This document shows, piece after piece, positions 21,973-42,774 of a stretch of DNA of 60,264 bases. The translations under genes were made by a program, and so were the position numbers. Numbering within the stretch: the first letter of the stretch is position 1; every line of letters starts with the position of its first letter. This DNA is from a virus (Duplodnaviria > Caudoviricetes), in IMG/VR virus record IMGVR_UViG_3300035198_000074, positions 1 through 60,264 of that record. One strand, written 5' to 3'. A model generated the notes under the pieces. That model ran no database searches, was not told the origin of the DNA, and worked only from the letters and a program-made list of their open reading frames with translations.

Positions 21973-23859
21973 TCAAAATGGTAATCCCGTCCATGGATTA
22001 ATGGGACAGCAACCTTGATCTTTCATTGCCTGCGTTCTTTTATCGCAAGTATAGCCACAAGGATGTGCATAGGAGCATGTTGGTGGTTGGCATTGATATG
22101 CACCACAATTTATTCCAGAATTAGTAATGTAATCGCATGGATCTCCAAATATATCTTCACATGAAGCCCCCAATTGGTTACAGGAAAACGTCACTTGAGC
22201 ACAATTTCCAGGATTATAGCCTGGACAACCAGGCCCAAGAGTTTCAGAAATAAAACTTCCATCGCAACGATAGCTGTAATATTTATAGCCGATACCACAT
22301 ACCCTCAAAACCCCACAACCATAACAATCTGCCCATCCACATATCCCCGGCCAGTTTGCCCATTGCTCATTATAGGCAATCTCATCGGGTGTATAACAAT
22401 TTACGGCTATCTTAATATCCGCACTGTCACCGCAACAGTCTGTAACTGTAATTGTAGGATTAAAAGCACATCCAGCATTTGAAGCAGGGGCTGTATATGA
22501 CGCAGATGAACCATCGTCGCTTTGTGTCAGTGTGCCACCACCTGCAAGACTCCATTCATAGGGACCGATCCCGCCATTAGCTGAGAAATTTTGGCCTTCG
22601 CTACATTCCATCATCAGCGATGTATATCCTATTGAAAGAGGCTCATGTTGACCACTACAAGCATCAACTGTTTGAACAACATACTGGACTCCACAACGAT
22701 CTGTCAAAGTAATAGTCACTTTATCATGACAGTCTTCTGATAGATTAGTAATATAATAAGCAACCGTTTTATACCCGCTCTCTGGAACAATAAGCTCTCC
22801 AGGGCCAGATAAAGTCCATTCAAACGGAATACAGCTTCCTTTAATATCAGGAATGGCATATAAGGGAGCGCGGTCATAAGGACTTAATAATGAATATAGC
22901 CTTAATTTCGGTTGGTCTAAATCTTGAGGCATTTTACAAAGTGCAACATCTCCATACATAATAAAAGGTGAGCACGTCCCAAAATCTTCCCACCAGATTT
23001 CTACTTTTCTATCATCCGCCGCTTTTTCGCAACAATCCACCTTCACGATGGTTTCGACTTGACAAAGCTCATTTCCACCATACTGGATAAACAATTTTAA
23101 AAGAAGGTATCCCAAACCAGTTCTTGAGAAAATGCCACCTTCCCATTCTGTATAGGCTTTCCATAAGAAATAAGTACCTTGCGCATCATGATCAAACTTT
23201 AGAATTTCGGCTTGCCCAGAGTCATAGAAACTGTAGATGAGGTGATTTTCAGGATCGGGCGGAACAGGGGGAGTACTGTCTGGATGACCTTGAAAATAAG
23301 GAACAGCCCCACCCAGATAAAGGCGTTTTGAAGCATCATAAGTATAGGGATGACATTCAGGCGAACTTATACTATCTGTCTCGCATACAGTAGAAAGAAC
23401 GGAGGAACAGGTAGTACAATTCGTCAAACTGAGACGATAATATGTTTTAAGATAATCCACTCCTTCTACCTCAGTATTGCCCTCTGGGTCTTTAATTATC
23501 CACACATCGCCTTCCTTTGTAAATATCTCCTGACCTGGGGCATACCACTTCATCGGGGGTATTTTTTCTGGTGGATTTATAAATTCAATAACACATGCAG
23601 GCGCCAAAGCCGCCACTGCCGCCAGAGTTGTATCAATATTGACAAAGTCTTGTCCGAATATTGACCATGCCGTGATGATGGTTCCGTCTGTGAAATAGCG
23701 GGTCATCTTCAACTGACCGAGGGCATTAAACTTCATTTGATTCTTGAGTTCATAGAGGAGTTTATCCGCCTCGCCCCGAAATTGACTCGCATAAACCTTA
23801 TCGCCCTTGACGGTTCGAGTGAGTGCTGTGCTTGGATACTGGAATTGCCATTCCTTCAT
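21973..23859 (-). CDS. Cys-rich tail-associated protein
   Basis: About 36 Cys counted by eye; Ig-like GGIGPYEWSL segment; tail module position. Confidence 0.55.
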   Translation of the reverse strand: MKEWQFQYPSTALTRTVKGDKVYASQFRGEADKLLYELKNQMKFNALGQLKMTRYFTDGTIITAWSIFGQDFVNIDTTLAAVAALAPACVIEFINPPEKIPPMKWYAPGQEIFTKEGDVWIIKDPEGNTEVEGVDYLKTYYRLSLTNCTTCSSVLSTVCETDSISSPECHPYTYDASKRLYLGGAVPYFQGHPDSTPPVPPDPENHLIYSFYDSGQAEILKFDHDAQGTYFLWKAYTEWEGGIFSRTGLGYLLLKLFIQYGGNELCQVETIVKVDCCEKAADDRKVEIWWEDFGTCSPFIMYGDVALCKMPQDLDQPKLRLYSLLSPYDRAPLYAIPDIKGSCIPFEWTLSGPGELIVPESGYKTVAYYITNLSEDCHDKVTITLTDRCGVQYVVQTVDACSGQHEPLSIGYTSLMMECSEGQNFSANGGIGPYEWSLAGGGTLTQSDDGSSASYTAPASNAGCAFNPTITVTDCCGDSADIKIAVNCYTPDEIAYNEQWANWPGICGWADCYGCGVLRVCGIGYKYYSYRCDGSFISETLGPGCPGYNPGNCAQVTFSCNQLGASCEDIFGDPCDYITNSGINCGAYQCQPPTCSYAHPCGYTCDKRTQAMKDQGCCPINPWTGLPF

Positions 23860-25091
23860 GATGTCTTAATAGGCTCCACAAGCATACTCATGTTATCAAT
23901 ATCAAAATCTGCACCATCATTATTCATGATTCGGATTGTGAAATAGTATCCCTTCAAACCAGTAGGCATCTTAAGCCGCTCTTGCGCAATCACGCTACCT
24001 GTTATTGTAGATGCTTTACTTACTTCTTGAGTTACATCTTCATCAGGGTAGACGTAGACAGTAAGAGTGCCTGTTGCCCTAAACATAAAGGTTATATCCC
24101 GCAAATATTTGCGCAAGCTTGTCCCGAAGTCAGTAGAGCCAGTCTTGAGCTTGGCAGATATAGTCGTTCCATTATCATCTGTCCCGCCTATCTCATAAAT
24201 ACCAGTCGGAGTAGCCCCCAATATTCTTCCGTTAAAATTAGCAATGGAGTTAAAGTTGAAGCCACTGTAGGTAGAGATTGCCTTATTCTTTATGTTGATT
24301 ACGATTCCAGTATATACCTCAGCAGGAGCTTCGCTGGGGCTGGCGCTTGGGGAAGCGGAAGGGCTGGCAGACGGAGACATGGAAGGACTCATTGAAGGCG
24401 AGGGAGAAGGACTTTCCGATGGGCTTCGTGAAGGAGAGGCTGTGCCACTTGCGCTTGGGCTACGGCTTGGGCTTGCGCTGGGAGATTTACTGGGGCTTTC
24501 CGAAGGCGACATGCTTGGGCTGGGAGAAGGAGAAATTGATGGACTCTTACTGGGACTCATACTTGGCGAAATACTTGGGCTTTCAGATGGCGATTCACTT
24601 GGGCTTCGACTCTTGCTTGCAGATGGTGATAAGCTTGCGGAAGGTGATAAGCTTGGGGATTCGCTGGGCGACATACTGGGGCTTCTGCTGGGGCTTAGCG
24701 ATGCTGATGGCGACAAACTGGGACTTGCACTGGGACTCATGCTTGGACTTTTGCTTGGTGATTCACTGGGACTAATACTCGCTGATGGGGATAAGCTTGG
24801 GCTTGCAGATGGCGATCTGCTTGGACTGGCAGAGGGAGAAGCACTTGGGCTTATACTGGGACTCATAGATGCAGAGGGAGATAAACTTGGACTCTTACTG
24901 GGGCTTACTGATGGAGAAGCGCTGGGACTTCTGCTTGGACTGACAGAAGCCGATGGAGACAAACTTGGGGAGGCGCTTGGACTCTGGCTTGCAGACGGAG
25001 AGAGACTCGGTGAGACACTGGGGCTCATCGAAGGGCTTAAACTTGGAGAAGCGCTTGGGCTTGCTGATGGGCTTTCACTTGCACTTGCCAT
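23856..25091 (-). CDS. tail protein with ~250-aa N-terminal (SPSX)n tract
   Basis: GGGAGG RBS before MASASESPS; C-domain VINIKNKAISTY...FNS...TG.TDFG typical of podophage tail proteins. Confidence 0.75.
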   Translation of the reverse strand: MASASESPSASPSASPSLSPSMSPSVSPSLSPSASQSPSASPSLSPSASVSPSRSPSASPSVSPSKSPSLSPSASMSPSISPSASPSASPSRSPSASPSLSPSASISPSESPSKSPSMSPSASPSLSPSASLSPSRSPSMSPSESPSLSPSASLSPSASKSRSPSESPSESPSISPSMSPSKSPSISPSPSPSMSPSESPSKSPSASPSRSPSASGTASPSRSPSESPSPSPSMSPSMSPSASPSASPSASPSEAPAEVYTGIVINIKNKAISTYSGFNFNSIANFNGRILGATPTGIYEIGGTDDNGTTISAKLKTGSTDFGTSLRKYLRDITFMFRATGTLTVYVYPDEDVTQEVSKASTITGSVIAQERLKMPTGLKGYYFTIRIMNNDGADFDIDNMSMLVEPIKTS

Positions 25092-25095
25092 ATTA

Positions 25096-25986
25096 CTACC
25101 TCCCAATAGCTAAAAATTGCTGAAATGGGGAATTTCTGATAATAGCAGAACCAGACGTGAGTCCAGTCTTTTGGAATAGTCCTTCCTGCACCTTGACTAC
25201 AACCCCCTGATTATAGCCTGCATATACGTAACCATCTTCCGCAAGCCAGTAAGCTACCCTTGCTGCTGGTGCGCCTTTGGGGACCAATACCGCAGACATG
25301 CCTTCAATAGCAGGATAATCTAACTTTGGAGTTTCTACCCACTCTGATATTGGACTCCTGCCCGCTTCAAAATAGACTTTTTCACTATCGCTTACATAGA
25401 TGCCATTATCCACAGCCTTTACCATGGTAATCCTGCTTTTGAAAGAAATGGCATTTTTTCTTGTATCCATACGAGTAGGGATAGTGGCATCTGAGAAGAA
25501 TAGGTTGGTATTGTTAGCTGCATAAAGTCTGCTATTATACCATTCAAGTATCTGACCACCCACCATTCTTACTTTATAATCTTCTGTTGGGGTCGGAAAT
25601 GGATAGGGCAATCCTGTTCTCACATCAATATAGCCAATGATACTCATATTGGAGAAGTAGACGTAATTGCCGTTAAATGTGTAGGCAAAATCGTCATCAC
25701 CACTCACATCCTCAATCAGGATAGTGGAAGTATTGTCGGCATTGAGTCGTTTGAAAGTTGTGCCTTGCAGGTAGAGACAAATGTCGTCATTTGCCCACAG
25801 GCTTCTTATGTTAGTGCCTGATACTATTGCACTCCCGAAGCCATCTCGTAAGTGAGGCTTGCCCATATCATCAATATCCACATTCTCAATCTCGTAGAAG
25901 TAGGCTCCATCCTTGCGAAGTCTGTTGGTTGCAAGGTCAGATACATTATCAATTCCATAGACTCGTGTAATTTTATAATCAGGCAT
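25096..25986 (-). CDS. tail nozzle / tubular-protein-like beta-propeller
   Basis: AGGAGG RBS before MPDYK; GIDNV...NVDIDD.G...R.G; beta-rich. Confidence 0.6.
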   Translation of the reverse strand: MPDYKITRVYGIDNVSDLATNRLRKDGAYFYEIENVDIDDMGKPHLRDGFGSAIVSGTNIRSLWANDDICLYLQGTTFKRLNADNTSTILIEDVSGDDDFAYTFNGNYVYFSNMSIIGYIDVRTGLPYPFPTPTEDYKVRMVGGQILEWYNSRLYAANNTNLFFSDATIPTRMDTRKNAISFKSRITMVKAVDNGIYVSDSEKVYFEAGRSPISEWVETPKLDYPAIEGMSAVLVPKGAPAARVAYWLAEDGYVYAGYNQGVVVKVQEGLFQKTGLTSGSAIIRNSPFQQFLAIGR

Positions 25987-27079
25987 CGAGGAAGCCTCCT
26001 TTATACCCATAGTATGACGCATTTGAATAACTTGTGCCATTATTAATTCTAATGTCTCTTACCCACCCAGCATAGGGAGGTTCCGTTATTGCTTCTGATG
26101 GCGATGGGGAAGGACTCATAGATGGACTGACGGATAGACTTAAGCTTGGGCTTAATGAAGGAGAAATGCTTGGCGAAGCGCTCGGCGAAACACTGGGCGA
26201 TAGACTTGGACTAATACTTGGACTCTTAGACGGCGATCCGCTTGGAGAAATACTTGGACTTAATGATGCACTGGGGCTGAGTGAAGGACTCACAGATGGA
26301 GACGCAGAAGGTGACTCAGACGCAGAAAGTGACGCTGAGGGACTTAGCGAAGGACTCATGCTCGGCGATATAGAAGGCGAAGCCGAAGGGGAAACACTTG
26401 GTGAAAGCGATGCAGAACCTATTGCCACACTTGGGCTTGCAGATGGAGACTCGCTTGGACTTATTGACGGAGATAGACTCGGAGAAATAGATGGAGATAA
26501 AGACGGAGACACCGATGCTGATGGACTCAAGCTTGGGCTTTCACTTGGAGAAATAGAAGGAGAAATGCTTAGACTAATGGATGGGCTTGCGGATGGAGAA
26601 ACTGAAGCTGATGGAGATAAGGAAGGACTTGCCGAGGGCGACATAGATGGTGACAAGCTTGGTGACTGCGAGGGCGATGCTGAAGGAGAAAGCGATGGCG
26701 ATTCGGAAGGTGACTCACTGGGACTCATTGAGAGCGACATACTTGGAGAAACTGATGCTGAAGGACTTAATGAAGGACTTTCAGATGGAGACTTACTGGC
26801 ACTTAGCGAAGGAGATGCGGATGGCGACAAACTCGCACTCTCAGAAGGTGATTTAGAAGGTGATAGACTCGGACTTTCTGATGGCGAGGGTGAAGGGCTA
26901 ACAGATGGAGATATTGATGGGCTAAGGCTTGCACTTGGCGAAAGCGATGGACTGGCACTTGGCGATTCGGATGGACTTACCGATGGAGATAAGCTTGCCG
27001 AAGGGGCACTAATAATCACCTCATCGCCAGCATTACTGATAACTTGATTGCCTAAATTGTCTATGACATATAAAGCCAT
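25979..27079 (-). CDS. protein made almost entirely of (SPSX)n repeats
   Basis: About 300 aa of Ser-Pro repeat between a short VIDNxGN N-terminal peptide and a WVRDIR C-terminal peptide. Confidence 0.75.
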   Translation of the reverse strand: MALYVIDNLGNQVISNAGDEVIISAPSASLSPSVSPSESPSASPSLSPSASLSPSISPSVSPSPSPSESPSLSPSKSPSESASLSPSASPSLSASKSPSESPSLSPSASVSPSMSLSMSPSESPSESPSLSPSASPSQSPSLSPSMSPSASPSLSPSASVSPSASPSISLSISPSISPSESPSLSPSASVSPSLSPSISPSLSPSISPSESPSASPSVAIGSASLSPSVSPSASPSISPSMSPSLSPSASLSASESPSASPSVSPSLSPSASLSPSISPSGSPSKSPSISPSLSPSVSPSASPSISPSLSPSLSLSVSPSMSPSPSPSEAITEPPYAGWVRDIRINNGTSYSNASYYGYKGGFLDA

Positions 27080-27898: not shown

Positions 27899-30496
27899 TT
27901 AATAAATATAATAAATTGCTGGTACATAACTACTTCCATGACTTTCCCTAATATCCCTTACCCAATCCCCGAACTCGAAATCCCCTGCAACCTGTGGAGA
28001 AGGAGATGCGGAAGGAGACGGTGATGGTGATTTAGATGGAGAACGAGATGCCGACATGGATGGGGAGCGACTCGGACTCTCCGATGGACTCTTACTTGGC
28101 GATGCAGAAGGCGACATAGAAGGAGAGCAAGAAGGCGATGCAGAAGGTGATGCGGATGGACTCTTAGATGGAGATATAGATGGAGACAAGCTTGCAGACG
28201 GCGATAGACTTGGCGATATAGACGGCGATAGGCTTGGCGAGATGCTTGGACTTAGTGAAGGAGATGCGCTTGGCGAAATTGATGGCGATAAACTTGCCGA
28301 GGGAGATAGGCTGGGCGACTCCGAGGGAGATTCACTTGGAGAGATGCTTGGGCTAAGCGAGGCACTGGGGCTAAGTGATGGACTCTCACTGGGGCTAAGT
28401 GATGCAGAAGGACTAAGCGATGGGCTTGGCGAAGGTGAGAGCGATGGACTGGCAGATGGAGACATTGATGCCGATCCAGGAGTTTCTTCCGCTCCCCAAC
28501 TTCCCCAGGCTGGTTCTGGATCAAGATATTGTCGAACAAAATAATCATCAATACTATGTGTAATATAATAAGCATCAGTATAAAAATCTCCCCAAGCTAA
28601 ACATTTGCCACTTGCAAATGCTTTCACGGAAGCAATGGCAATAGAAGCGGGTGACGTAAAAAGACTGACTCCACCAGAAAAAATATCACAAAGAAAATTT
28701 GTGCCGTCTGACCAAATTTTAACCACAAGGTTGCTGTTAGCAGTAAGTACAGTTGCGGTGGTAGTCCATGCACTCCCTGTCCAAAAATGAAATGTGCCAC
28801 CTGTATCTTGGTATAGAACGGAAATCTTATTCGGATTAGTAGCAGCATTGGAATTATATCTCATAAAGTAAAATCTTCTCTTCGGCCCAGCAACGGCAGC
28901 GGTTCCTATTAAGTGAGCAACTGTATCTGAATCAAAAAGACCAACTATACTTTGATGACCTGCGGTTGTACCACCAATGTGTGTGTTCCACTTATTGATA
29001 GTAGCTTCAAATGCCCAATCGGCAAGAATAGCACCAGCAATTCCGCAATCGTCAGTACTATCTTCTGTAAGTGTATACTCTCCTGATCCATGTGATAAAG
29101 CACCTGTTCCAGATACAGCTTCCGTAAAACTGCCAGCAACCCCGTCATCACCCTTTATAAAAGTATTTATAATATTTGAAACAGAGGTTGCGTCTGCCTT
29201 TCCATAATACATATAGAAAGTCGTTGCACCTGTTCCAATGGAATCAAATTCAATGAAGAATTTTGCTATGGGTCTCTCGCTGGTAGCTTGTCCAATAAGT
29301 GGATAACCTGTACTTGCATACCCAGAATAAAAAAGAGTAAACTGCTTATTTGCATCAACTACAATATTCTTTAATGCATCTGTAAGAGGACTACTCCTAT
29401 AAATATGTAATGCTTCCCAAGACCAATCTGCATTTCGAGCTAATACCTTACCCTGATATATCCACGTCTTCTTATCAGTACAAGTAAATAGAGCAAGTTC
29501 AAAATTCACAGAAGCAACTATCTCACGAACACAATACATATAGTAAATGCCATTGTAGAGCGAAACATGTACATGGCCTAAACCACTTTTAAAATCGCTG
29601 TCTTCAGCTGGGTAAGCGATTGGATTCCCCCCATCTCTGGTAAAGTTCTCAACAACATTGGTTGTATTATTCCAAGTAAAAGTAGCTAATAAAAGTTTTC
29701 CTCTATTATTTCCTAAAAATGTTGTTCCTCCCGCAGCCCCCGTCACATACCAGAGATAAAAAACTCCACCTTCATAAGTAAGACTTGGTTGATAACAATT
29801 CCTTTCATTTGTATCTGAATACTTCTCATAAGAAGCCGTACCATCAACCAAGACTCCCAATTTTGTCCAACTCTTTCCATCAGACGAATAGGCCAAACCA
29901 ACTGTCGTATTATTATGCAGCGGTTCTTTGCCTGCTCCAGATTTCGACCCAGCATAGGCAATGAACCACTTTGAATAATCAGAAACGTAAACCATGGATG
30001 GATCGGCGCAATGGTACTCATCCCATTCACCAGTACCACCCAAAGAAATGACAGGATTTGTAATTCCAGTCTCCACCCATGTTATCCCATCATTACTTCG
30101 AACTATACAGGGAGTTTCACTTGCATCAGGCGGATATGGAGTATAAACCATCCAATATTTATAACCATCTACCGCAGAATCAAAGTAGAGTACATCTGGA
30201 TGAACAACCCCATTTGCACCCTGCAATGGCAAAGTCAATGGATTGAATCTATATTTTAGAAACGATTTACCAAATAATGAATAACTTTTGAGAAAATAAT
30301 CCAGAAGAGTTTCACCATCAGCCTTTGTAAATCGAAGATCACCAAAATCAGCAAGGCAGTGGTCATTGCAATCAACATCCGCACCGGCATCTGCATTCTT
30401 ACCAACCAGCAATTTCATCTGGTAATTGGTGACAGCACCAGAGGCACGACTTAATGTAATACTCTTACGATATGCCCAACCAGTTAACCACGCCAT
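27899..30496 (-). CDS. DUF2341 / glycoside-hydrolase-like 5-bladed propeller / (SPSX)n appendage protein
   Basis: W.YRK.IT, DFGDLRF and YMYYG (DUF2341); HPDV, SNDGITW and SSDGKSW Asp-box blades; ~160-aa SP tract; WVRDIR tail. Confidence 0.7.
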   Translation of the reverse strand: MAWLTGWAYRKSITLSRASGAVTNYQMKLLVGKNADAGADVDCNDHCLADFGDLRFTKADGETLLDYFLKSYSLFGKSFLKYRFNPLTLPLQGANGVVHPDVLYFDSAVDGYKYWMVYTPYPPDASETPCIVRSNDGITWVETGITNPVISLGGTGEWDEYHCADPSMVYVSDYSKWFIAYAGSKSGAGKEPLHNNTTVGLAYSSDGKSWTKLGVLVDGTASYEKYSDTNERNCYQPSLTYEGGVFYLWYVTGAAGGTTFLGNNRGKLLLATFTWNNTTNVVENFTRDGGNPIAYPAEDSDFKSGLGHVHVSLYNGIYYMYCVREIVASVNFELALFTCTDKKTWIYQGKVLARNADWSWEALHIYRSSPLTDALKNIVVDANKQFTLFYSGYASTGYPLIGQATSERPIAKFFIEFDSIGTGATTFYMYYGKADATSVSNIINTFIKGDDGVAGSFTEAVSGTGALSHGSGEYTLTEDSTDDCGIAGAILADWAFEATINKWNTHIGGTTAGHQSIVGLFDSDTVAHLIGTAAVAGPKRRFYFMRYNSNAATNPNKISVLYQDTGGTFHFWTGSAWTTTATVLTANSNLVVKIWSDGTNFLCDIFSGGVSLFTSPASIAIASVKAFASGKCLAWGDFYTDAYYITHSIDDYFVRQYLDPEPAWGSWGAEETPGSASMSPSASPSLSPSPSPSLSPSASLSPSESPSLSPSASLSPSISPSESPSESPSLSPSASLSPSISPSASPSLSPSISPSLSPSISPSLSPSASLSPSISPSKSPSASPSASPSCSPSMSPSASPSKSPSESPSRSPSMSASRSPSKSPSPSPSASPSPQVAGDFEFGDWVRDIRESHGSSYVPAIYYIY

Positions 30497-30497
30497 T

Positions 30498-31418
30498 TTA
30501 GTATCCTATCCCCGACCCTGACCGTATCGTAAAAGTCTTATCAGGTTTATTGAGTAATATTCCCTTCCGCTTGGCATTGCGCTTTGCTTCCTCAAATAAT
30601 CCACGATGGTATTCTGCCTTTTGAGGAAAGTAGGTATACTTATCGGGCTTGAGGAAGGCACGTTTGGCAATCCCATCTACCAAGTCATCTATTAAGTCTT
30701 CCTGGATGTCAGTTATTTCTGTCAAGGAAGTAATATCAGATACGGCGAATCTTGCAGTAGGCAATCTGCTAACCGTCATAAGCAACGTATCTCGCACCTT
30801 GCGCAATATGGCGTTGGTATTTGCTTCACAGACAAGCGCATCAGTTACTGTAATCGAGGTTGTGCCTTCAGTGGCTACTGTGTAGTAGCCGTCATTACTT
30901 GTTGTGCCAGACACGTAGAACTCATCACCCACTGCGAAGTCCGAGAAGTCTCCCCCAACCTGGGAAATGGTTACGCCATTAAAAGTAATGTTAGAAGCCC
31001 CTGTTACCTCGCCTTCATCGTCAAACTTTGGGTAAATGGATAAGTAGCCAGAATACGCCCCTGGACAGAAGCGAGAAGGTATCCCTGTCGTGCTGCGCCA
31101 ATCAGAGATAGTTTTATCGAGGACGGATTCAGTTGTCCGTAGTAATGGACCAAATGAAGAGTTAGTCTCCAGTCTTGCGTCATGCACACTGATGACACGT
31201 GAATCGAGGGCATAAACGCCTACATTGCTTATAAGCTTGATAGTGCGTATCGCCTCAGTTGTCTGATCCCTGATTGGTAAAGCGGACTTTACCAGTTCAT
31301 TGATAGCACGATTTAGAAGGTGGATAAGCTCCGTATTGCTCCATAAATATTTCTGGCTATCTGTATCATCCAACACCTCTTCCCTTGTCCAATTTATTAC
31401 ATCAGCTACGGTTGACAT
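30498..31418 (-). CDS. head-tail adaptor-like protein with inserted beta domain
   Basis: LDD...YLWSNTELIHLLNRA, GVYALD, G.PS, AFLKPD. Confidence 0.6.
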   Translation of the reverse strand: MSTVADVINWTREEVLDDTDSQKYLWSNTELIHLLNRAINELVKSALPIRDQTTEAIRTIKLISNVGVYALDSRVISVHDARLETNSSFGPLLRTTESVLDKTISDWRSTTGIPSRFCPGAYSGYLSIYPKFDDEGEVTGASNITFNGVTISQVGGDFSDFAVGDEFYVSGTTSNDGYYTVATEGTTSITVTDALVCEANTNAILRKVRDTLLMTVSRLPTARFAVSDITSLTEITDIQEDLIDDLVDGIAKRAFLKPDKYTYFPQKAEYHRGLFEEAKRNAKRKGILLNKPDKTFTIRSGSGIGY

Positions 31419-31891: not shown

Positions 31892-33632
31892 TTGCTGCCT
31901 CCTTCAGCCATTCATTAAAACGCCCCTTACATCTTCCCCAAAATGGAATCTCATCTGCCATAGTCCAATCCACCACCTGACCTCGGTAGCCACTTGGGTC
32001 AAAAATGTTGCGAGTTAGGGCATCCCCATGGCGAATATCAACATAGGGAATTTCAGACATCCATGTGTCAAAACCATGAGGAGTTAATTGCCTGTATTCT
32101 TCCCTGCAATGCCCGCCTGGTTCAAAGTGCCTGCGTCCTCCTATCACTCCTTGCTCAATTAATCTTACCCTATTGCGGTAATATTCAATAAGAATATCTC
32201 GGTATGCACACAATCCCGACACCTGCTTAGCTTTAAAATGGAGCGCTTGACCATCTCCTGCCCTCACTTTCCACCAATTGAGGTTATAATAGAATGTATC
32301 CTTTCTTGGAGGCGTAAATTCAAAATGGCACTTCGGGTAGAGGATGTCGTGTTCGACCATAAATGCAATGTCAGTATCAAGCGCCTCCAATCCAGCCAAC
32401 TGTTGCTTAGCCATGGTAAGGTATCCCCTCTTCATATTTAATACTATATTTTCGCCAAAATTGATAGGGGATAAGGAGACAGTAATAAGTCTATACCCAT
32501 TTGAGGAAGCAAGTAACTTTGTTTTCACAGCTTCAAAAATCGTAGGATCAATCCTGTTATCTGTGTAAAAACACAAGCCTTTTGTGGGATGGGATGCACC
32601 TTTTGGCACAGGAGGAGGGATGCTTTTCCTTGATTCCATGCTATATGGCACAAATGACTTACTGGCCTCCCGCAACTGTCGCCTGTCTTCTTCCGACCAT
32701 CGTGGCACAGGCCAAAATTTGTCAATAAGCCAAATAAGTGGGTATTTTTGGTGAGGCCATTTATTGCCAAAGAATATTTCCCTGGCCCGCTTCTTGGCGA
32801 ACTCAACCTGTTTACCAGAGAGTGTATAAGGAAACCCAAAATCTCCCCCTTGTGTCCTAAACATATGGGCATACCAGGTATTGTGATTACATACAACTCT
32901 ACCCCCTGATAGCCATGTTTTTACTGCTACCTCTATCCCCTGGCTTCCCCATGATCCAAAATCCTCATCACACAAATTAAGCTCCCAAAATTTATCTCTG
33001 GTTACCATGAAAAAGGAACCCTGAAGCGACATTGTTTCGGTGAGTTGCTTCTTCCTTGCTTCTGGACGGGACTTAAACTCCCGAAAATATTGAAAATGGG
33101 GTTCTGGGTCGAAGCAGTAGGAAGTAGATTGAGGGTTAGTTTTGGCGATCCAGCATATATCCATGGTGGTGGCCTTACCGCATAATATCTCCTGCCCACT
33201 TTTATCTTTCCCTATTACCTCTCTGCATGGCCCTGATGGACTCTGGTAACGTCTATGGCCATCTGGGCATACCCAATCAAATGCATGCAGATTGCGCATT
33301 ACTGGCACCATAGTCCAGTCATCCTGCATATCTTTCATTAACTTAACATCGAACCCTTCATCGAAGGCGCAATGGGCGTCAACTTTTGCGATATACTTGG
33401 CCTTAGATAGCTTAACGCATTCGTTGGTAATTGCCCTTTGCCCAATGGGGGTACTATGATAAATCATGTGGACTAAGGGATGATCGTTAATTGGCGGGTC
33501 AGGCCAATTGCCATCACACCCTATGATTATCTCAGTATTCCCCCTGATATTCTTGAGTAAATCCTCCACGGTGCGGGCAAGAAATACCTCATTTCTCGCA
33601 GGAATGCAGATACTCAAATCAACCTTTGCCAT
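31875..33632 (-). CDS. two-domain GT-A glycosyltransferase (GT2-like plus a second GT domain)
   Basis: LSICIPARNE, KVDAH (as in ppGalNAc-T-like DxH), WGSQGIE..KTWLSGG; C-domain with EHDILY. Confidence 0.85.
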   Translation of the reverse strand: MAKVDLSICIPARNEVFLARTVEDLLKNIRGNTEIIIGCDGNWPDPPINDHPLVHMIYHSTPIGQRAITNECVKLSKAKYIAKVDAHCAFDEGFDVKLMKDMQDDWTMVPVMRNLHAFDWVCPDGHRRYQSPSGPCREVIGKDKSGQEILCGKATTMDICWIAKTNPQSTSYCFDPEPHFQYFREFKSRPEARKKQLTETMSLQGSFFMVTRDKFWELNLCDEDFGSWGSQGIEVAVKTWLSGGRVVCNHNTWYAHMFRTQGGDFGFPYTLSGKQVEFAKKRAREIFFGNKWPHQKYPLIWLIDKFWPVPRWSEEDRRQLREASKSFVPYSMESRKSIPPPVPKGASHPTKGLCFYTDNRIDPTIFEAVKTKLLASSNGYRLITVSLSPINFGENIVLNMKRGYLTMAKQQLAGLEALDTDIAFMVEHDILYPKCHFEFTPPRKDTFYYNLNWWKVRAGDGQALHFKAKQVSGLCAYRDILIEYYRNRVRLIEQGVIGGRRHFEPGGHCREEYRQLTPHGFDTWMSEIPYVDIRHGDALTRNIFDPSGYRGQVVDWTMADEIPFWGRCKGRFNEWLKEAANALQT

Positions 33633-33653
33633 CTATCCCTCACTAAATTTTAC

Positions 33654-33681
33654 TTGACAAATTAGAACTATATGCTATATT
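33654..33681 (+). promoter_or_regulatory. sigma70-type promoter of the Tad2 moron
   Basis: TTGACA-16 nt-TATATT with extended TG. Confidence 0.6.
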
Positions 33682-33705
33682 TCCCATATCAAATATCCGC
33701 TATGA

Positions 33706-33759
33706 AAGGAGTCAATAATGTCAGACAACGATAAGGAGTCAATAATGCCAGACAACGAT
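33706..33759 (+). repeat. 27-bp tandem duplication of RBS plus start codon
   Basis: AAGGAGTCAATAATG(T/C)CAGACAACGAT twice. Confidence 0.9.
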
Positions 33760-34017
33760 TATTATAAACTTGAAGTATCACCTACGCATCCAACTACCCC
33801 AATACTTAATAACTTTGGGATTGCCATGGACCGAATTCTAAGCGGCTTTGTCATGCGAAGGTTATCATGGCCCGACGATGGAACTGTAGTAGCCATGCAT
33901 AATGACATATTGTCCATATTCATCCCAACCGATAAACAGTGGCATCCCCTTATGGTATCCATCGCTGACATAGCTGGGGAAGACTGGGTAACTGCATCAC
34001 CCCCAAGAGTTAATTAA
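33718..34017 (+). CDS. DUF2829 / Tad2-family putative anti-defence nucleotide sponge
   Basis: NF..AM..I..G..MRR.SW...S.ADI.GEDW pattern. Confidence 0.65.
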   Translation: MSDNDKESIMPDNDYYKLEVSPTHPTTPILNNFGIAMDRILSGFVMRRLSWPDDGTVVAMHNDILSIFIPTDKQWHPLMVSIADIAGEDWVTASPPRVN

Positions 34018-34733
34018 GGTTGAGCCAAACTTAATTTATGAAATAGTCCAAATGGATTGTTGTCTCCATCTGTCCTGAATTTACTCACAGGATAACAATA
34101 AATCTTAGGGCCTATTACTTGCTCTTTTGCCTTTCCCAACCTTACCAATCTATCAAAACTACCATTGAATTGCCCTTCTTCAGAAATAAATCTTCCTCCC
34201 ATATGAAATCCTTGCTCACAGAAGCGCACATCGTAGCCCCCGATAGCATTGAAAACTGCCTTGCGGATTAAGTAAGTGTTGCCATGAAAACCTCCACAAA
34301 GGTGTCCTCTTCTGGTACGCACTCGTGCAGGATTTAGTCCAAATTCCAGCATAGACTTCTCATCGCATACGATATCCCCATTTTCATCGAGAATCCCGTA
34401 GTAGCGTGGAAATACCATCTTATCAGAAGTAAATGTTAGGGAAGCGTCTATTGCCTCTTGTGTGATGATGTGGTCAATATCAGTAAAAAATAGGTATTCC
34501 CCTTTGGCGTTGGTTGCACCGAGGTTGCGTGCCAATCCCTGTGTCCAGGGACGCTTATCGTGAGTATAGTAGAAGGTTAGATTCCGCATCTCGCCAGTAA
34601 GTGGTGGCTCACTCCCGTCATCCACGAAAATAAACTCCACCGAATCGGGCAAATCCATTTTCTTGAAATGTGCAATCTGTCTTCGCACAACTTCATGACT
34701 ATCCAGAATTGCGATAACAATGGATATCTTCAT
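34014..34733 (-). CDS. GT2-family glycosyltransferase
   Basis: ISIVIA, FVDDGS, ARNLGA..AKGEYLFFTDID, IGGYD..F. Confidence 0.9.
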   Translation of the reverse strand: MKISIVIAILDSHEVVRRQIAHFKKMDLPDSVEFIFVDDGSEPPLTGEMRNLTFYYTHDKRPWTQGLARNLGATNAKGEYLFFTDIDHIITQEAIDASLTFTSDKMVFPRYYGILDENGDIVCDEKSMLEFGLNPARVRTRRGHLCGGFHGNTYLIRKAVFNAIGGYDVRFCEQGFHMGGRFISEEGQFNGSFDRLVRLGKAKEQVIGPKIYCYPVSKFRTDGDNNPFGLFHKLSLAQP

Positions 34734-35404
34734 CTATACCTCACAAGTGTCAGGTAGGGTAATTTGAAGTCATGATGATGCTCGGTGGGGATTACCTTTA
34801 CCATACAATTGTGCTTAAATAGTACATAGGGAAAGGACAATTGATCCACTGAGTGATACCTTGACGTATGATACCACCAGTCTTTAAGCATTACCCGATT
34901 CTTCTCAATATTGCGGTAAACGAAGGCAGTAGAGGCGTAGAGTTTATCGTCCACGTACTCCTTATCGCTAAAAATTTCTGATAACTGATCATCTATCAAT
35001 TCATTGTCATATCTAAGGGTTACGTATTGATCCATGCCTGGATTTTTGCGCTCCTTTTGCAATCTCTGCTTGAGATATATCGCCTCCTCCCTGATGGAGT
35101 TTCGTATGGGGTGCTTCAGGACAGCAATATCCACTCCACTGCATTGCTCTACGAACCATTTCACTGAGTCAATATGCTGTAGTGAAAAGGAAGCATCTAT
35201 CCATATATAATAGTCGTAGCCTGGCACCATCTGCCATGCGAACATTTTTGGGATACGTGCCTGCAGTCGTGGTGTCATGGAACAATGCCGTAGTGGGAAA
35301 TTAGCATCTGTGAAAATGTGGAAATCATAGGGGATACTTTGCGGAACGTAGGGCACAAGTTTGTCGAAATCTCCCATGTTGGCAGTAACCACTGCGATTC
35401 GCAT
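34730..35404 (-). CDS. DUF616 (TOD1/MUCI70-like) glycosyltransferase
   Basis: VVTA.MGDFD, FTD, AR.PK, YDYYIWIDAS, HP.R, DQLSFPYV. Confidence 0.75.
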   Translation of the reverse strand: MRIAVVTANMGDFDKLVPYVPQSIPYDFHIFTDANFPLRHCSMTPRLQARIPKMFAWQMVPGYDYYIWIDASFSLQHIDSVKWFVEQCSGVDIAVLKHPIRNSIREEAIYLKQRLQKERKNPGMDQYVTLRYDNELIDDQLSEIFSDKEYVDDKLYASTAFVYRNIEKNRVMLKDWWYHTSRYHSVDQLSFPYVLFKHNCMVKVIPTEHHHDFKLPYLTLVRYR

Positions 35405-35712
35405 TATCCTCTCCGTCCTGGCATTACGCATCCTGGTTTACCAGCTTCCCACCAGGGAGTCAATGGATACACCTTCCGCCCCCATCCTCTACCTTCATGC
35501 ATAGTAATTCTTTTTGCCATAGATTTAGACATGGTTGTAGCTATTCGCAATAAACGCCTTATTTCAACTAAATCTACATTTTCCTCTTTGGTCAATTGGT
35601 AAATATGTCGTAAAACCTCGCATGGAGAAAGTAGGCGATATGACCCATGCATCAATTCTTCTTTCTCTGGCTCACAATGAAACCAGTCAGTAGGGTATCT
35701 ATTTTCCTCCAT
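35404..35712 (-). CDS. small helical protein, paralogue C
   Basis: CEVLRHIYQLT...LRIATTMSKSM. Confidence 0.6.
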   Translation of the reverse strand: MEENRYPTDWFHCEPEKEELMHGSYRLLSPCEVLRHIYQLTKEENVDLVEIRRLLRIATTMSKSMAKRITMHEGRGWGRKVYPLTPWWEAGKPGCVMPGRRG

Positions 35713-36373
35713 TCCAGTATTGCTCCCACAATTCTGTCGCCTTTCCCCAATAAGGCAATTCTCGCTTTATCTTATCTTTTCTACGAATAATTCTTACTCC
35801 TCCTACGCTGGGACGATGGTTAAAAACAATAGTAGGAGTTCGAGTCTGAAATCTCTCAATTCCCACTATAGGCAATCCAAGTTGCTCCTCAAATCTTCCA
35901 GGCTCCCCAAACCCAATAAGTTCTCCCTTTTCCCTACTAAGGGGATTGGGAAATTTCTTGAAACGTGTTTCAAGAGTATCTACCATTAGCTCAGTTGAGG
36001 CAATGCACATAGACATATTTGCCCTATTGCGCCAGAAAAATAGGTCTCGATTGGCATTCCATCTATTAACATTATAGGAGAAGGTTCCATCAGGGGGGCG
36101 GTGTCGGAAATGCTCCTCATTATAGAGTGCATCGTCCTCGCAACATGCTACATACTTGGTTTTTGCCTCTATTGCCCCAATAAGCACCTGCTTATAGATA
36201 TTGTAGATGGATGCCCCAATGTCGCCTACACAGATATTGTAGCCAAAGTCGAGTGGCTTCTGGGAGACAGAGATAATGGGAAGACCGAAGGAGAGCAGGG
36301 ACTGCCTGATGTTATTAGCAAATTTCTCATCCACTAAGTTGGCAGTATAGTAAATGAGGGTTAAGTCCGTCAT
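35699..36373 (-). CDS. GT-A glycosyltransferase, paralogue of the C-domain of 31875-33632
   Basis: YYTAN, ISVS.KP.DFG.NI, EDDALY..HF, EPG, LPYWG. Confidence 0.7.
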   Translation of the reverse strand: MTDLTLIYYTANLVDEKFANNIRQSLLSFGLPIISVSQKPLDFGYNICVGDIGASIYNIYKQVLIGAIEAKTKYVACCEDDALYNEEHFRHRPPDGTFSYNVNRWNANRDLFFWRNRANMSMCIASTELMVDTLETRFKKFPNPLSREKGELIGFGEPGRFEEQLGLPIVGIERFQTRTPTIVFNHRPSVGGVRIIRRKDKIKRELPYWGKATELWEQYWNGGK

Positions 36374-36963
36374 GGCTTCACCCAGAAAAAGCTATGTAAT
36401 TCATCCTGTGTAATGTACCACTCAAGTATCGAATGCCCTCGTGTATACCCCTCAACCGCTGGCACTACTCCGCAACCATGCAAATTGGTATAGTCATGCC
36501 CCGACACTATTCCTCCCCTTCTTACCTTCTTGCTCCATCCAATAATGTCCATCATGACATTGTCAAAGTCATGCATAGCATCAATATAGACAAAATCAAG
36601 CGATTCATCCTCGAAGTCGGCCAGCGCCTCCATGCTTGGCTTTCTTATCAGAGTAGCACCAAGCGGAGTAAGTACCTTATTAGCTCTTCTAAATACTCTC
36701 TCCTGTCGAATAGGTCCTATTCTGCCATAAGGTGCCCATGAGTCGATGCAAAACATCTTAACCCCTGGATTCTTACGAATTATCATCTCTGAATACTCTC
36801 CCCACCTAACTCCTATTTCTGCCCCTACCTTGAACCCAGCTTCAGCAAACAATTCCGCAAGATTTTCACGGGTACTTTTCAACCATCCCGCATAAGGGAT
36901 AGTCGATATACCCTTTACTCTGAATTTTGCCTTAATATAGGCATTTAGTTCGGATGCGTTCAT
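36370..36963 (-). CDS. class I SAM methyltransferase (Methyltransf_24-like)
   Basis: GAEIGV..G, IDSW, SLDFVYIDAMH, GGIVSGHDY. Confidence 0.85.
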   Translation of the reverse strand: MNASELNAYIKAKFRVKGISTIPYAGWLKSTRENLAELFAEAGFKVGAEIGVRWGEYSEMIIRKNPGVKMFCIDSWAPYGRIGPIRQERVFRRANKVLTPLGATLIRKPSMEALADFEDESLDFVYIDAMHDFDNVMMDIIGWSKKVRRGGIVSGHDYTNLHGCGVVPAVEGYTRGHSILEWYITQDELHSFFWVKP

Positions 36964-36964
36964 T

Positions 36965-37963
36965 CTATACCTCCTTAAAGGGCAGTGCATCTATGCCGTC
37001 TGGATCAAATATACGGAAATTTGTATTGAATTGTGGGTTCTCCTTCTCAAATCTTACCTTATCTTCCTTCCAGTTGGCTGGCCAGCTTGGGATAGGCCAG
37101 AAATGCTCCACAAACCACTCCATCTTACGGGTTGCAAGAGGCCATAGATCATTCATCCAGTAGTAGGTCTGGAAGCGCCCCGTTTCCCGCATGGCCTGCC
37201 ACGACAATTTCCATGTCCTGCCGTGCGAATCCTTTTCCCGTTCGCTTTTGTGCATATGGGCATACCACGTATTCTTATTCACAATGCACCTACCACCTGA
37301 TAGCCATACCTTAAATCCTAACTCTTGCGGCTCGTTCTCCATTAAATCGCAATGCTTCTCGTCAAGTCCGCCTATTGCGAGATACTTCTCCTTCGTCATC
37401 ATCCAGAAGGAACCCTGAAACGTCATCATGTCATCTATGGGCTTATCCTTATTGTGTATCTCCATCCAGTAAAATTCGCTTACTCCCATATTCTTTCCGA
37501 ACCCATCTTTCCCTATCCACTTCCTGCCATGGAGTCCATTGCCATACATATTGTCAGGAGTATAGGGGTAAGTGATGAAGAGATATTCGGTAGGTCCCCT
37601 TCCCCTTTCCCATTTTTCGGCATCCATTGCATATCGACTGGGGTTAACAAGCCAATCATCTTCCATGTCCTTCTGTAATATTTCATCGAACCCTTTTCCA
37701 AACATTGTGTGATCATCGCATTTTGCGACATATTTACCTTTGGCAAGTGCTACCCCAAGGTTGACACTTTTACGCATTCCTGTAACTTGTGGTTTATGAA
37801 CAATGGTGAGATTTGGGTGGGGCTTTATTTCTGGGACGGGCCAGTACCCGTCGAGAATTGCGAGTACTTCAATTTCCCCCGTGGCGTTTTTGAAAATATC
37901 TTCAACAGTATTCGATACATATTTGCAATTCCGACTTGGAATTATTATGCTCAGCAAGGCCAC
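36965..37963 (-). CDS. GT2-like glycosyltransferase, paralogue of the N-domain of 31875-33632
   Basis: LSIIIPSRN, KCDDH, FQGSFW, ELGFKVWLSGG, TWYAH. Confidence 0.85.
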   Translation of the reverse strand: MALLSIIIPSRNCKYVSNTVEDIFKNATGEIEVLAILDGYWPVPEIKPHPNLTIVHKPQVTGMRKSVNLGVALAKGKYVAKCDDHTMFGKGFDEILQKDMEDDWLVNPSRYAMDAEKWERGRGPTEYLFITYPYTPDNMYGNGLHGRKWIGKDGFGKNMGVSEFYWMEIHNKDKPIDDMMTFQGSFWMMTKEKYLAIGGLDEKHCDLMENEPQELGFKVWLSGGRCIVNKNTWYAHMHKSEREKDSHGRTWKLSWQAMRETGRFQTYYWMNDLWPLATRKMEWFVEHFWPIPSWPANWKEDKVRFEKENPQFNTNFRIFDPDGIDALPFKEV

Positions 37964-38468
37964 TTCGTCTTCCCCATGGATAGCAATATTCTTTCACAAT
38001 CTCTCTTACTTTCATTCTTCGGCCAGTTATATTCATTTCGCACGACCATGGTGGGATTTGATTAATCCAATACCGAAACTCATCTAAATCAACAATGTAG
38101 CGATACACATCCTGGATATTGGGCATTTCCCCACGCCTGATCTGATTTCGGATAAAATTTATAAGCGTATGGGGATTGTTACCCCATGTAATGTTACCAA
38201 CCCTGACAATAGTGTAGGGATGAAAAATACTTTTTACGATATTCTCTACTGTCCTCTTGTGACGTGCATAGCGAGAATCGGAATAGAATACGCATAGAGA
38301 GCTAAAATAGACAAGGTGCATGGATCTGTCTTGCTTATACAGTAATGCTATTTCTCTTTGGTATTCTGATTCTCGTGTCTCGTTGCTATTGCTTACGCCT
38401 GAAGCGAAATAAATTAAGTCGGAGCGGTCAGTTAGGGCACTGGCCAGATCTCCATATCCAACTATCAT
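37902..38468 (-). CDS. short NAD-dependent epimerase/dehydratase-like protein
   Basis: MIVG.G.LA, FASGVSNS, YFSS, Y..HK. Confidence 0.65.
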   Translation of the reverse strand: MIVGYGDLASALTDRSDLIYFASGVSNSNETRESEYQREIALLYKQDRSMHLVYFSSLCVFYSDSRYARHKRTVENIVKSIFHPYTIVRVGNITWGNNPHTLINFIRNQIRRGEMPNIQDVYRYIVDLDEFRYWINQIPPWSCEMNITGRRMKVREIVKEYCYPWGRRSGLAEHNNSKSELQICIEYC

Positions 38469-40270: not shown

Positions 40271-41227
40271 TTATGATGCTTCACCAGTGATGTAAAGAAC
40301 TCTAACTTCACCTGCGGTGCTTGTCTCATTCCAGATCAACCCGTATCCAAGCACCCCATACCAGGCCATTCCCTTCCATCTACCGTATCCACCAGGGATT
40401 GCGGCACGAAGTTCAGGGGTAAGAACCTCAGCAATGGCCACTCCATCTTCCCCAAATACAAGGCCCTCACCAAGAACTCCACCTGATCCAACTGACTCAT
40501 CCAGTGAATCGGTATTGGTAATCTCGATCCACCTGATCTGCTCCACCATCCCTACCTCGGACTTGAAAAGCACATCGCCAGGCTTCAGCCAGTATCTCCA
40601 TGCCTGAAAATCAGGATCATTCTTGATACCTCTTAGAAGTTTGGTTGTGCCAAGACCAATGTAGTTTCCGGCTTCGTAGAAGGGGATTTTATAAGTGGAT
40701 CGCATTGCGTCCCGAATGGCGCCACAATGGGTGATGTTGAGGTTATTGGTTGCAACCTCCGCAAATGTCGGAGTATCGAATGTTACTGCCGTTGCGGAAG
40801 TAGGCACTGCCCTTACATAAGTCGTCTTGAAAGCGGTAGCCGCAAGGGCGTCATTGACTGCTGCCAACTGATCCTTCAGCCTTCTCTGGACAGGAATTTC
40901 CAGGTCGAATCTCGCAAAATCTTGTGCGAGACTGGTATACTGCACCGCCCTACCAAGCTCTTTAGCCTCAATACCAACTGTCCCGATGGAAATGGTATCC
41001 ACTGGGATGTCGGTATTTTCATCCAGAAGAGCAGAAGTAGGAATAGAGATATTTTTGATTTTGGTGATATTGATGGTATCGCCCATCTTACGACCAAAAC
41101 CTGGCTCTTTGCGGCAAAACTGAGCGATTTCAAAATCGTCAACCGCCGCATACCTTAACTCTTTTGACATCTCTTCACACACCGAATAACCAGTGGCGAG
41201 AGACCCAGTCCATGTAAATGATGCCAT
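40271..41227 (-). CDS. major capsid protein (HK97 fold, N4-gp56-like)
   Basis: GDTINITK, E.G..V..T, L...E.G....IR.IE, G.AWYG; follows the scaffold gene. Confidence 0.85.
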   Translation of the reverse strand: MASFTWTGSLATGYSVCEEMSKELRYAAVDDFEIAQFCRKEPGFGRKMGDTINITKIKNISIPTSALLDENTDIPVDTISIGTVGIEAKELGRAVQYTSLAQDFARFDLEIPVQRRLKDQLAAVNDALAATAFKTTYVRAVPTSATAVTFDTPTFAEVATNNLNITHCGAIRDAMRSTYKIPFYEAGNYIGLGTTKLLRGIKNDPDFQAWRYWLKPGDVLFKSEVGMVEQIRWIEITNTDSLDESVGSGGVLGEGLVFGEDGVAIAEVLTPELRAAIPGGYGRWKGMAWYGVLGYGLIWNETSTAGEVRVLYITGEAS

Positions 41228-42135: not shown

Positions 42136-42231
42136 ATTGTCCTCCTTATCCGTATCCTGCATTGCCTTGCAGGGGGTAGTGCCAGTAGGGTGTCCAGTTA
42201 TGGGGCCTGCTGGGGTAATGTTACTTGTCTC

Positions 42232-42285
42232 GGCAACAAAAAAGGGCTGATACGAAGGTACGGCTCCGTACAGCCCTTTTTTGCC
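42232..42285. terminator. bidirectional intrinsic terminator-like hairpin
   Basis: AAAAAAGGGCTG...CAGCCCTTTTTT. Confidence 0.7.
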
Positions 42286-42330
42286 AATTATTTGAATCGT
42301 TAGGGGATCAGACTAACGACTTGCCTTTTA

Positions 42331-42774
42331 TTAGAATCCTATTGCCATTACCTCCAATGTGGTAGATGATAAATATGCACCTTCACTCACCTCTGTTCCA
42401 TAGGTAGTGAAAACTCTAATGGTATTGGCCGATCTATCCCATTCATAATTTATTCCCGCTCCATTAGCTTCAAGAATGACTACTGCGTCAATGTTACTCA
42501 TCCCCAATTCTCCAGCGGTTAATGGAACCCCGCCAGATGGATAGGATGCTGGCGCACCCCCAAAAGCAATCGTAGCAAATGTCAACCTTTTCCTGCCTAT
42601 TCTCGATATTTTACCATGAAGAGTGTAAGTAACGTCTCCAGCAGGGATAGGTGATGGCGAAGCGCTGGGGCTTGCGCTGGGGCTGGATGAGGGAGACCTG
42701 CTTGGGCTCACACTTGGTGATGCACTGGGTGATGCACTGGGGCTAATGCTTGGGCTTTCTGATGCTGATGCCAT
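42331..42774 (-). CDS. head decoration-like protein with N-terminal (SPSX)n tract
   Basis: AAGGAGG RBS, MASASESPS plus ~40 aa of SP repeats; SYPSGG.PL...LG beta domain. Confidence 0.7.
   Translation of the reverse strand: MASASESPSISPSASPSASPSVSPSRSPSSSPSASPSASPSPIPAGDVTYTLHGKISRIGRKRLTFATIAFGGAPASYPSGGVPLTAGELGMSNIDAVVILEANGAGINYEWDRSANTIRVFTTYGTEVSEGAYLSSTTLEVMAIGF

Follow-up and report, generated by a model that had tools for sequence, protein, structure and literature searches.

Candidate O-glycosylated stalk proteins and a linked cassette of polypeptide GalNAc-transferase-like enzymes in an uncultured tailed phage

Four structural genes of an uncultured tailed phage (IMG/VR record IMGVR_UViG_3300035198_000074, Caudoviricetes; estimated completeness 65%) carry tandem repeats of the form Ser-Pro-Ser-X, hereafter (SPSX)n tracts, and a nearby cluster of glycosyltransferase (GT) genes encodes homologues of the enzymes that initiate mucin-type glycans, the polypeptide N-acetylgalactosaminyltransferases (ppGalNAc-Ts). 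All 60,264 bases of the record, called the window below, were analysed. From the conserved genomic linkage between tracts and enzymes, and from the homology of the latter, we propose (with a probability of about 0.65) that soluble, cytoplasmic protein O-glycosyltransferases of the phage glycosylate the tract serines of its virion appendage proteins, either prior to assembly or in the course of it. The four tract-bearing genes (SP1 to SP4) lie in the structural module, as follows.

23856-25106, minus strand: SP1, N-terminal tract (aa 12-258 = 24333-25073, 247 aa, 123 Ser, 59 Pro) followed by a 150-aa C-terminal structural domain
25979-27079, minus strand: SP2, nearly all tract (aa 31-328 = 26096-26989, 298 aa, 148 Ser, 66 Pro) between 30 N-terminal residues and a 38-aa C-terminal tail
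27899-30496, minus strand: SP3, 865-aa appendage protein with an N-terminal region, a stalk (tract aa 679-833 = 27998-28462, 155 aa, 78 Ser, 38 Pro) and a 32-aa C-terminal tail
42331-42813, minus strand: SP4, small protein in the head-gene block with an N-terminal tract (aa 20-54 = 42652-42756, 35 aa, 19 Ser, 9 Pro) and a 100-aa beta-sandwich domain

These tract lengths, obtained by translation and script and comprising 368 serines in total, bear out the roughly 250, 300, 160 and 40 residues given in an earlier note on this DNA. Serine and proline together make up 72-80% of the tracts, as against 5.8% serine and 6.0% proline in ten other window genes; position X is mainly occupied by A, L, I, V, M, E, K, R or P, threonine is essentially absent, and a six-frame scan found no further such tracts in the window. 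Serine codons mix AGY and TCN at both serine positions (AGY 72/123 in SP1, 54/148 in SP2, 24/78 in SP3 and 12/19 in SP4), and within the tracts Tandem Repeats Finder returned only short, degenerate arrays (≤57 nt, 73-94% matches), which together argue, as the earlier note had, for a repeat kept at the protein level and not produced by recent slippage. Long open reading frames (ORFs) also cross the tracts on the plus strand (24292-25113, 273 aa; 26166-27047, 293 aa; 28056-28544, 162 aa). The tracts of SP1, SP3 and SP4 share a reading frame with domains for which relatives exist, which identifies the minus strand as coding, and these plus-strand ORFs are by-products of the codon pattern of the repeat, not genes.

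The sequences flanking the tracts indicate what kinds of protein carry them. The C-terminal domain of SP1 matches phrog_26502 ('virion structural protein', E 6e-15) and is 30% identical (E 2e-22) to that of a 347-aa protein in L001, a related locus that lacks the GT, in which the N-terminal half is a different, non-SP repeat; by sequence comparison this is a natural swap of the N-terminal half, which we count in favour of tract glycosylation. Neither L001 nor a second relative, L199, has a counterpart of SP2 or SP3. The C-terminal tails of these two proteins (25979-26095 and 27899-28000) share a module of ~27 aa directly after the tract (13/27 residues identical), found in no other SP protein of the 78 viral GT loci described below; this module may be a docking peptide by which the stalks are anchored to the particle. 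A search for relatives of the SP2 protein gave 281 pattern matches, 0 of which were confirmed by tblastn, presumably owing to the low-complexity filter. In SP3, the N-terminal region matches DUF2341 (Pfam) and aa 95-183 match PDB entry 6n1a, a 'carbohydrate-binding protein' (E 1e-13). For SP4, an AlphaFold2 (AF2) model is confident in the domain and has a predicted local distance difference test score (pLDDT) below 50 in the tract, and the N-terminal tract is present in 8/8 family members (45-65% identity). The SP4 fold had no match in PDB at E ≤0.001 (Foldseek), its best BFVD fold match was an uncharacterised protein of a Haloarcula tailed virus, and its Atlas matches were viral hypothetical clusters only. 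The position of SP4 in the head-gene block suggests a head component, an association that is positional only, and because no fold or family match is informative a capsid-coat location is not established; the same holds for the coat over both head and tail envisaged in the earlier note, SP1 to SP3 belonging to the tail/appendage module.

The enzymes are encoded between the capsid and adaptor genes (31875-38468), where Pfam, hidden Markov model (HMM) and AF2/Foldseek analyses agree with the earlier note on six GT domains in five genes, accompanied by a Methyltransf_24 gene. Occurrence of each gene was counted over 77 viral loci and 71 loci from metagenome-assembled genomes (MAGs), all of them bearing the GT.

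31875-33632, minus strand: long GT, 585 aa, an N-terminal ppGalNAc-T-like GT-A domain (family HMM A4, E 2e-105; PF00535 at aa 7-112) fused to a C-terminal GT-A domain of the 224-aa family
34014-34733, minus strand: accessory GT2, 239 aa (PF10111, 49.5 bits, and PF00535), in 15/77 viral loci
34730-35431, minus strand: accessory TOD1/MUCI70 GT-like protein, 233 aa (PF04765, E 1.4e-8, 34.8 bits, above cut-off), in 6/77 viral loci
35699-36373, minus strand: 224-aa GT-like domain of GT-A fold (AF2 pLDDT 93 and Foldseek), core cassette, in 62/77 viral and 49/71 MAG loci
36370-36990, minus strand: Methyltransf_24 S-adenosylmethionine (SAM)-dependent methyltransferase, 206 aa, O-methyltransferase-like (PF13578, E 9e-13), core cassette, in 54/77 viral and 56/71 MAG loci
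36965-37963, minus strand: short GT, 332 aa, ppGalNAc-T-like GT-A enzyme (profile of 33 homologues), the marker of the cassette
37902-38468, minus strand: accessory 188-aa NAD-binding-like protein (PF13460, NAD_binding_10, E 0.0013, 19.1 bits, under the cut-off of 27.2), in 3/77 viral loci and conserved in the related locus L002

The PF00535 scores of the 332-aa, 585-aa and 239-aa proteins (44.2, 35.2 and 41.7 bits) all exceed the gathering cut-off of 23.3. The 224-aa protein and the C-terminal half of the long GT are homologous, and matches to that half (60/77 viral loci) overlap those to the 224-aa protein itself. It has no Pfam family, and a profile of its family retrieved nothing significant from PDB sequences (best E 0.015); its placement among GT-A enzymes comes from a fold search only, in which the AF2 model retrieved GT-A transferases as the top PDB matches (AvpGT, SpsA, TarP and WrtF; template modelling score ~0.45-0.5). 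Within this family, D81 and Y84 are invariant. The SAM methyltransferase read from the sequence in the earlier note is upheld by the PF13578 match, and the 'epimerase-like' gene named beside it is reduced to the weak, sub-threshold NAD-binding match listed above.

Two small helical proteins also lie inside the cluster on the minus strand (31402-31725, 107 aa; 35404-35712, 102 aa). They are weak paralogues (13/41 identical, E 2e-4), the 107-aa type recurs in 8/77 GT-bearing viral loci, and they could assist the cassette as a chaperone or regulator.

The short GT (332 aa) is a paralogue of the N-terminal half of the long one (585 aa). When a profile of 33 family members was compared with PDB sequences, the top matches were 14 ppGalNAc-T structures (E 2e-14 to 3e-10), whose alignments span profile positions 4-257 of 285; other GT2 structures align only over positions 3 to ~100, the nucleotide-binding first third. 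In this profile search, the only solved relatives over the full length are the ppGalNAc-Ts of family GT27. Residues D83, H85 and H236, invariant in the 33 sequences, align with the DxH motif (as seen for D83/H85 in chains 6s22 and 6e4r) and with the later metal-ligand histidine of the transferases, and conserved E214, W220, G223 and G224, together with H236, align with the second half of the catalytic domain (the Gal/GalNAc-T motif region). Transfer of GalNAc from UDP-GalNAc to Ser/Thr is a putative activity, assigned by homology. PF00535 was the only Pfam family found in the 332- and 585-aa proteins, with no ricin-type lectin domain, and neither has a type II membrane anchor (top 19-residue hydropathy 0.67 and 1.04). 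Existing annotation gives the family no specific name: source names of family members are generic, and no NCBIfam family scored above cut-off for either ppGalNAc-T-like protein of the window. The family comprises ~536 representative clusters at E ≤1e-30 among 1.84 billion proteins, and the 332-aa GT had no tblastn match at E 1e-3 in 50,697 deposited phage genomes.

To follow the linkage between enzymes and tracts, IMG/VR was scanned with the GT alignment, which gave 78 distinct loci (29-78% identity); linkage was counted from GT-bearing loci outward, the tract side being represented by one locus, L204. An SP tract lies within 10 kb of the GT in 54 of the 78 viral loci, and Thr-Pro-Ser variant tracts occur in 3 further loci. 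Tract ORFs share the strand of the GT without exception (74/74); 22 of them end ≤500 nt upstream of the GT and 0 start ≤500 nt downstream. After dereplication at 90% identity, 50/69 GT clusters were tract-positive, as were 20/23 when only loci with ≥8 kb on both sides were considered. The other cassette members travel with the short GT (long-GT C-terminal domain in 60/77, 224-aa family in 62/77 and methyltransferase in 54/77 viral loci); in each of five whole GT-positive records the short paralogue is accompanied by a long one, as in the window; and in L204, reached through the SP-tract pattern, the two GT paralogues occur with the methyltransferase and a member of the 224-aa family. The major capsid protein (MCP), portal and terminase large subunit (TerL) of the window match in only 0-1 of the 77 GT loci. 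Judged by gene content, the cassette (short GT, long GT, novel GT-A domain and methyltransferase) moves as a unit among phages with unrelated structural genes, and because the pairing of tract and GT recurs in many unrelated phages, the tracts are probably sugar-coated stalks.

The tract proteins of these other phages (n = 78) mostly begin with a globular part, continue into the tract and close with a short tail (40), with fewer that are nearly all tract (15) or have an internal (14) or N-terminal (9) tract. Few of the 57 that were scanned have any Pfam domain, and those found (Laminin_G_3/ConA-like lectin in 4, Beta_helix in 2, Sipho_Gp37 in 1, also DUF2341 or DUF1349) are typical of fibres and receptor-binding proteins. 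Such domains, the mobility of the cassette and the siting of related cassettes in sugar islands with GtrB-like and nucleotide-sugar genes in MAGs of the candidate phyla radiation (CPR) would also be expected of a mobile module that pairs a receptor-binding fibre with a receptor-modifying enzyme, by analogy with tailspikes beside O-antigen-converting enzymes, in which the GTs alter the host surface against superinfection and the SP tract is a habitual fibre linker. We regard this as very unlikely: the GTs are soluble and the window has no lipid-carrier or export component, SP composition stays constant between phages as the fibre heads vary, and SP4 is a small head-block protein, not a fibre, yet has the tract in all its family members.

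Closer relatives of the window indicate that tract and GT are absent together as well as present together. Among loci related through the MCP or portal, 14 (L001, L005 and 12 distant portal relatives) have neither; in L001, the MCP of which is 85% identical to that of the window, the head genes lead directly to the adaptor. The GT was detected in 0/5 whole related records, with positive controls at 5/5. Three whole records that have no GT are tract-free as well (two are ≥96% complete), and two GT-positive records have 5 and at least 2 tract ORFs. L199, which is close to the window at the tail end of the module (EndoVII 80% identical), keeps the adaptor-to-EndoVII synteny with neither tract nor GT, and all 3 loci of an EndoVII-based background, together with 50 kb of the cultured podovirus PTXU04, likewise have neither. 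L002 (MCP 66% identical) has both, in a more extensive sugar cluster, one gene of which encodes a full-length NAD-dependent epimerase/dehydratase, and its copy of the 332-aa GT is 77% identical to that of the window, making the GT more conserved than the MCP.

This pattern bears on two further explanations. The tracts could be unmodified linkers, flexible or polyproline-II-like and comparable to the Pro/Thr linkers of modular enzymes, with the cassette acting on a host envelope glycan, a small molecule or the phage DNA. A Pfam 'PT disordered repeat' match on SP1 (37.3 bits, above cut-off), the lack of structure in the AF2 model of the SP4 tract, the existence of GT-positive records with no tract and the PHROGs label of the methyltransferase family ('DNA methyltransferase') are in keeping with such linkers. 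We nevertheless consider them unlikely, since they would leave unexplained both that, within the lineage of the window, tracts are seen only where the GT family is present and that 22/74 tracts end ≤500 nt from the GT in unrelated phages; moreover, among solved structures the enzymes are most closely related to protein O-glycosyltransferases, and searches of the window found neither membrane segments, a flippase and undecaprenyl phosphate enzymes for envelope work (Pfam and hydropathy) nor base-hypermodification enzymes. Least probable of the readings considered here is that the cassette glycosylates virion proteins at sites outside the tracts, on capsid or tail surfaces, and that the tracts serve another purpose. 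Che8 is known to O-glycosylate capsid proteins with enzymes that it encodes itself (PMC11256854, PMC13445384), and tract-less GT-positive records would fit; the association of tract and GT would again be left unexplained, and the MCP of the window gives no sign of an acceptor extension, as the GT-less L001 MCP, so similar overall, has the same ending. None of these alternatives accounts for joint presence, joint absence and adjacency as well as glycosylation of the tracts does.

Under the tract-glycosylation proposal, the short GT and the N-terminal ppGalNAc-T-like domain of the long GT would initiate glycans on serine, the GT-A domains of the 224-aa family, the accessory GT2 and the TOD1-like enzyme would extend them, and the Methyltransf_24 enzyme would probably O-methylate a sugar. 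The earlier note had suggested a methyl cap, which is plausible given that the methyltransferase belongs to the conserved cassette. Acceptor serines, sugar identity, enzyme order and methylation target are thereby assigned provisionally, as is the physical role of the product, which would be stiff, extended, protease-resistant 'bottle-brush' stalks that hold carbohydrate-binding heads (SP3) or structural domains (SP1, SP4) off the particle. ppGalNAc-transferases favour proline at positions -1, +1 and +3 of the acceptor, and the period-4 SPSX repeat places a proline at a favoured position for every serine. No membrane helix was predicted in the GTs, the methyltransferase or the SP proteins, which fits cytoplasmic modification of virion proteins.

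The same enzymes occur in cellular genomes. A scan of genome collections confirmed 214 relatives, from which 71 loci were kept, mostly from CPR/Patescibacteria MAGs, the remainder being labelled Gammaproteobacteria, Anaerolineae, Planctomycetota and a few archaea. Two CPR MAG contigs, L117 (240 kb) and L100 (119 kb), carry the cassette amid nucleotide-sugar genes and several methyltransferases, with SP-tract proteins of 1129 and 1751 aa and no phage structural matches. These sugar islands hint that Patescibacteria may have a form of the system at the cell surface, and because the cassette and giant SP proteins occur together in cellular-looking CPR islands, the system is likely shared between cells and their viruses; by gene content it is not confined to phages. 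A wider view, which we offer as speculation and to which we would give rather poor odds, is that the window is one case of a widespread, hitherto undescribed system for protein O-glycosylation, present in uncultured phages, in CPR bacteria and in some further lineages, in which ppGalNAc-T-like initiators act on (SPSX)n 'proto-mucin' domains, the family is the nearest relative, among prokaryotes and viruses, of the enzymes that start mucin-type glycans in eukaryotes, and glycosylated single-chain stalks, reaching hundreds of residues, take the place of the usual trimeric fibre shafts in phages.

Several observations weigh against the proposal. No tract was found at 24 of the 78 viral GT loci, and 5 of those 24 are tract-less elsewhere in the record too (records 25-76% complete, up to 112 kb), so the enzymes must have other acceptors in some phages; in MAGs, a tract lies within 10 kb at only 24/71 GT loci. 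GT-less controls are few and draw largely on a single lineage (14 loci, 160 kb, with the 50 kb of PTXU04 in addition), for which reason the Fisher P value of 3e-7 for the association of tract and GT, uncorrected for relatedness, is indicative only. The tracts are almost pure serine, with no threonine, and animal ppGalNAc-Ts generally prefer threonine and have the lectin domain that the phage family lacks; nor is an epimerase that forms UDP-GalNAc clearly present in the window. Support throughout comes from comparative genomics and homology. The central idea of the earlier note, that the tracts are O-glycan acceptors served by the phage's own GTs, is strongly favoured by the kinship of two GT domains with ppGalNAc-Ts, by the co-occurrence of GT and tract and by tract-free GT-less relatives, and is qualified in that the pairing is not obligatory.

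The system shares features with several known ones. In common with GT27 ppGalNAc-Ts (animals and some protists), the phage enzymes have a GT-A catalytic domain that aligns over nearly its full length, with the DxH motif and later histidine, and presumed acceptors that are serines in proline-rich tandem repeats; they differ in being cytoplasmic enzymes of a prokaryotic virus with no ricin-type lectin domain or membrane anchor, in the putative acceptors being serine only, and in the fusion of the long paralogue to another GT-A domain, itself novel. To our knowledge, only a few cultured mycobacteriophages are known to glycosylate their particles with enzymes of their own, and virion O-glycosylation of mycobacteriophages such as Che8 was reportedly described by Freeman et al. 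in 2023. Both Che8 and (putatively) the present phage use their own GTs to modify their own virion proteins in the host cytoplasm; the enzyme family differs (as seen in the lack of tblastn matches of the 332-aa GT in deposited phage genomes), the window cassette includes a methyltransferase, and the sites here would lie in appendage proteins, within dedicated tracts as long as 298 aa, as opposed to sites on capsid subunits.

Serine-rich glycosylated stalks are also known in the Gram-positive serine-rich repeat protein (SRRP) adhesins, including GspB and Fap1 (PMC7948813, PMC5578698, PMC6973325). The likeness extends to a long tract with serine at every second position (here ~50% Ser, in an (Sx)n register), to intracellular glycosylation by adjacent dedicated enzymes (here a proposal) and to a tract that serves as the stalk for a binding domain. 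Unlike in SRRP systems, no GtfA/GtfB-type GT4 and no SecA2/SecY2 accessory Sec genes were found among 29 + 32 window proteins (Pfam), proline recurs at every fourth position, and the product would be built into a virus particle and not exported to a cell wall. The linkers of modular glycoside hydrolases, rich in Pro, Thr and Ser, are low-complexity, extended, proline-rich spacers too, a resemblance reflected in the Pfam PT match on SP1; the phage tracts are much longer, have strict period-4 serine and lie alongside enzymes of their own. Such hydrolase linkers are glycosylated. We found no published description of ppGalNAc-T-like enzymes, dedicated SPSX virion tracts or a mobile cassette of this kind in phages.

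The setting of tracts and cassette is a minus-strand block at ~8-50 kb, a structural module that also encodes large tail and internal proteins. Its landmark genes are as follows.

47760-49331, minus strand: TerL, in the structural block
44524-46416, minus strand: portal, in the structural block
40271-41227, minus strand: HK97-type MCP, with a scaffold-like gene in the same block
30498-31418, minus strand: SU10-type head-tail adaptor (PF24175, E 5e-11), the boundary of the GT cluster
25096-26040, minus strand: Hc3-like head-closure/connector protein between SP1 and SP2 (phrog_8040, E 5e-29; 33% identity to L001 12330-13313)

The nearest cultured relatives of the MCP are those of podoviruses, at ~27% identity (Escherichia phage PTXU04 and Vibrio phages). 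Its C-terminal serine (GEAS), to which the earlier note had drawn attention, is ruled out as an acceptor by the identical MCP ending in GT-less L001. No tRNA genes were found in the window. Weak matches to an Rz-like spanin, RusA and Sak4 in the window suggest a bacterial host. The closest MAG match to the window GT (76% identity) is on L084, a 4.5-kb contig binned with a Methanomicrobia MAG, which is probably a phage fragment, making its binning a weak host lead. On L084, noted together with L086, an SP-tract ORF ends 364 nt upstream of the GT.

Elsewhere in the structural block, a 628-aa tail-module protein (21973-23859, minus strand) is very rich in cysteine, above all in its C-terminal third; neither Pfam nor PHROGs has a family for it, and it is kept in L001 and L199 (the latter copy at 37% identity). 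A 478-aa protein of the virion/internal block (12582-14018, minus strand) has a weak match to a GNAT acetyltransferase domain at its C terminus (E 5e-5). Non-coding tandem repeats at 50242-50600 (units of 26-28 nt, upstream of a small-terminase-like gene) and at 58205-58274 (10 copies of a 7-nt unit) might serve in packaging or replication. On L002 (3-1553 and 1590-2705), translation of the TerL gene reads as containing a long intein-like insertion, and an adjoining ORF on the opposite strand, also read from translation, resembles IS605 OrfB/TnpB.

Together, these results point to a different and much more widespread route to phage virion glycosylation. If the proposal is correct, mucin-like stalks would be a new fibre-building principle for phages and would explain very long, low-complexity ORFs that annotation pipelines leave unnamed in viral metagenomes. 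The cassette would then also offer a compact set of soluble, cytoplasmic enzymes for dense O-glycosylation of designed peptides in bacteria, and the family, as a prokaryotic or viral outgroup, could bear on the origin of GT27 enzymes.

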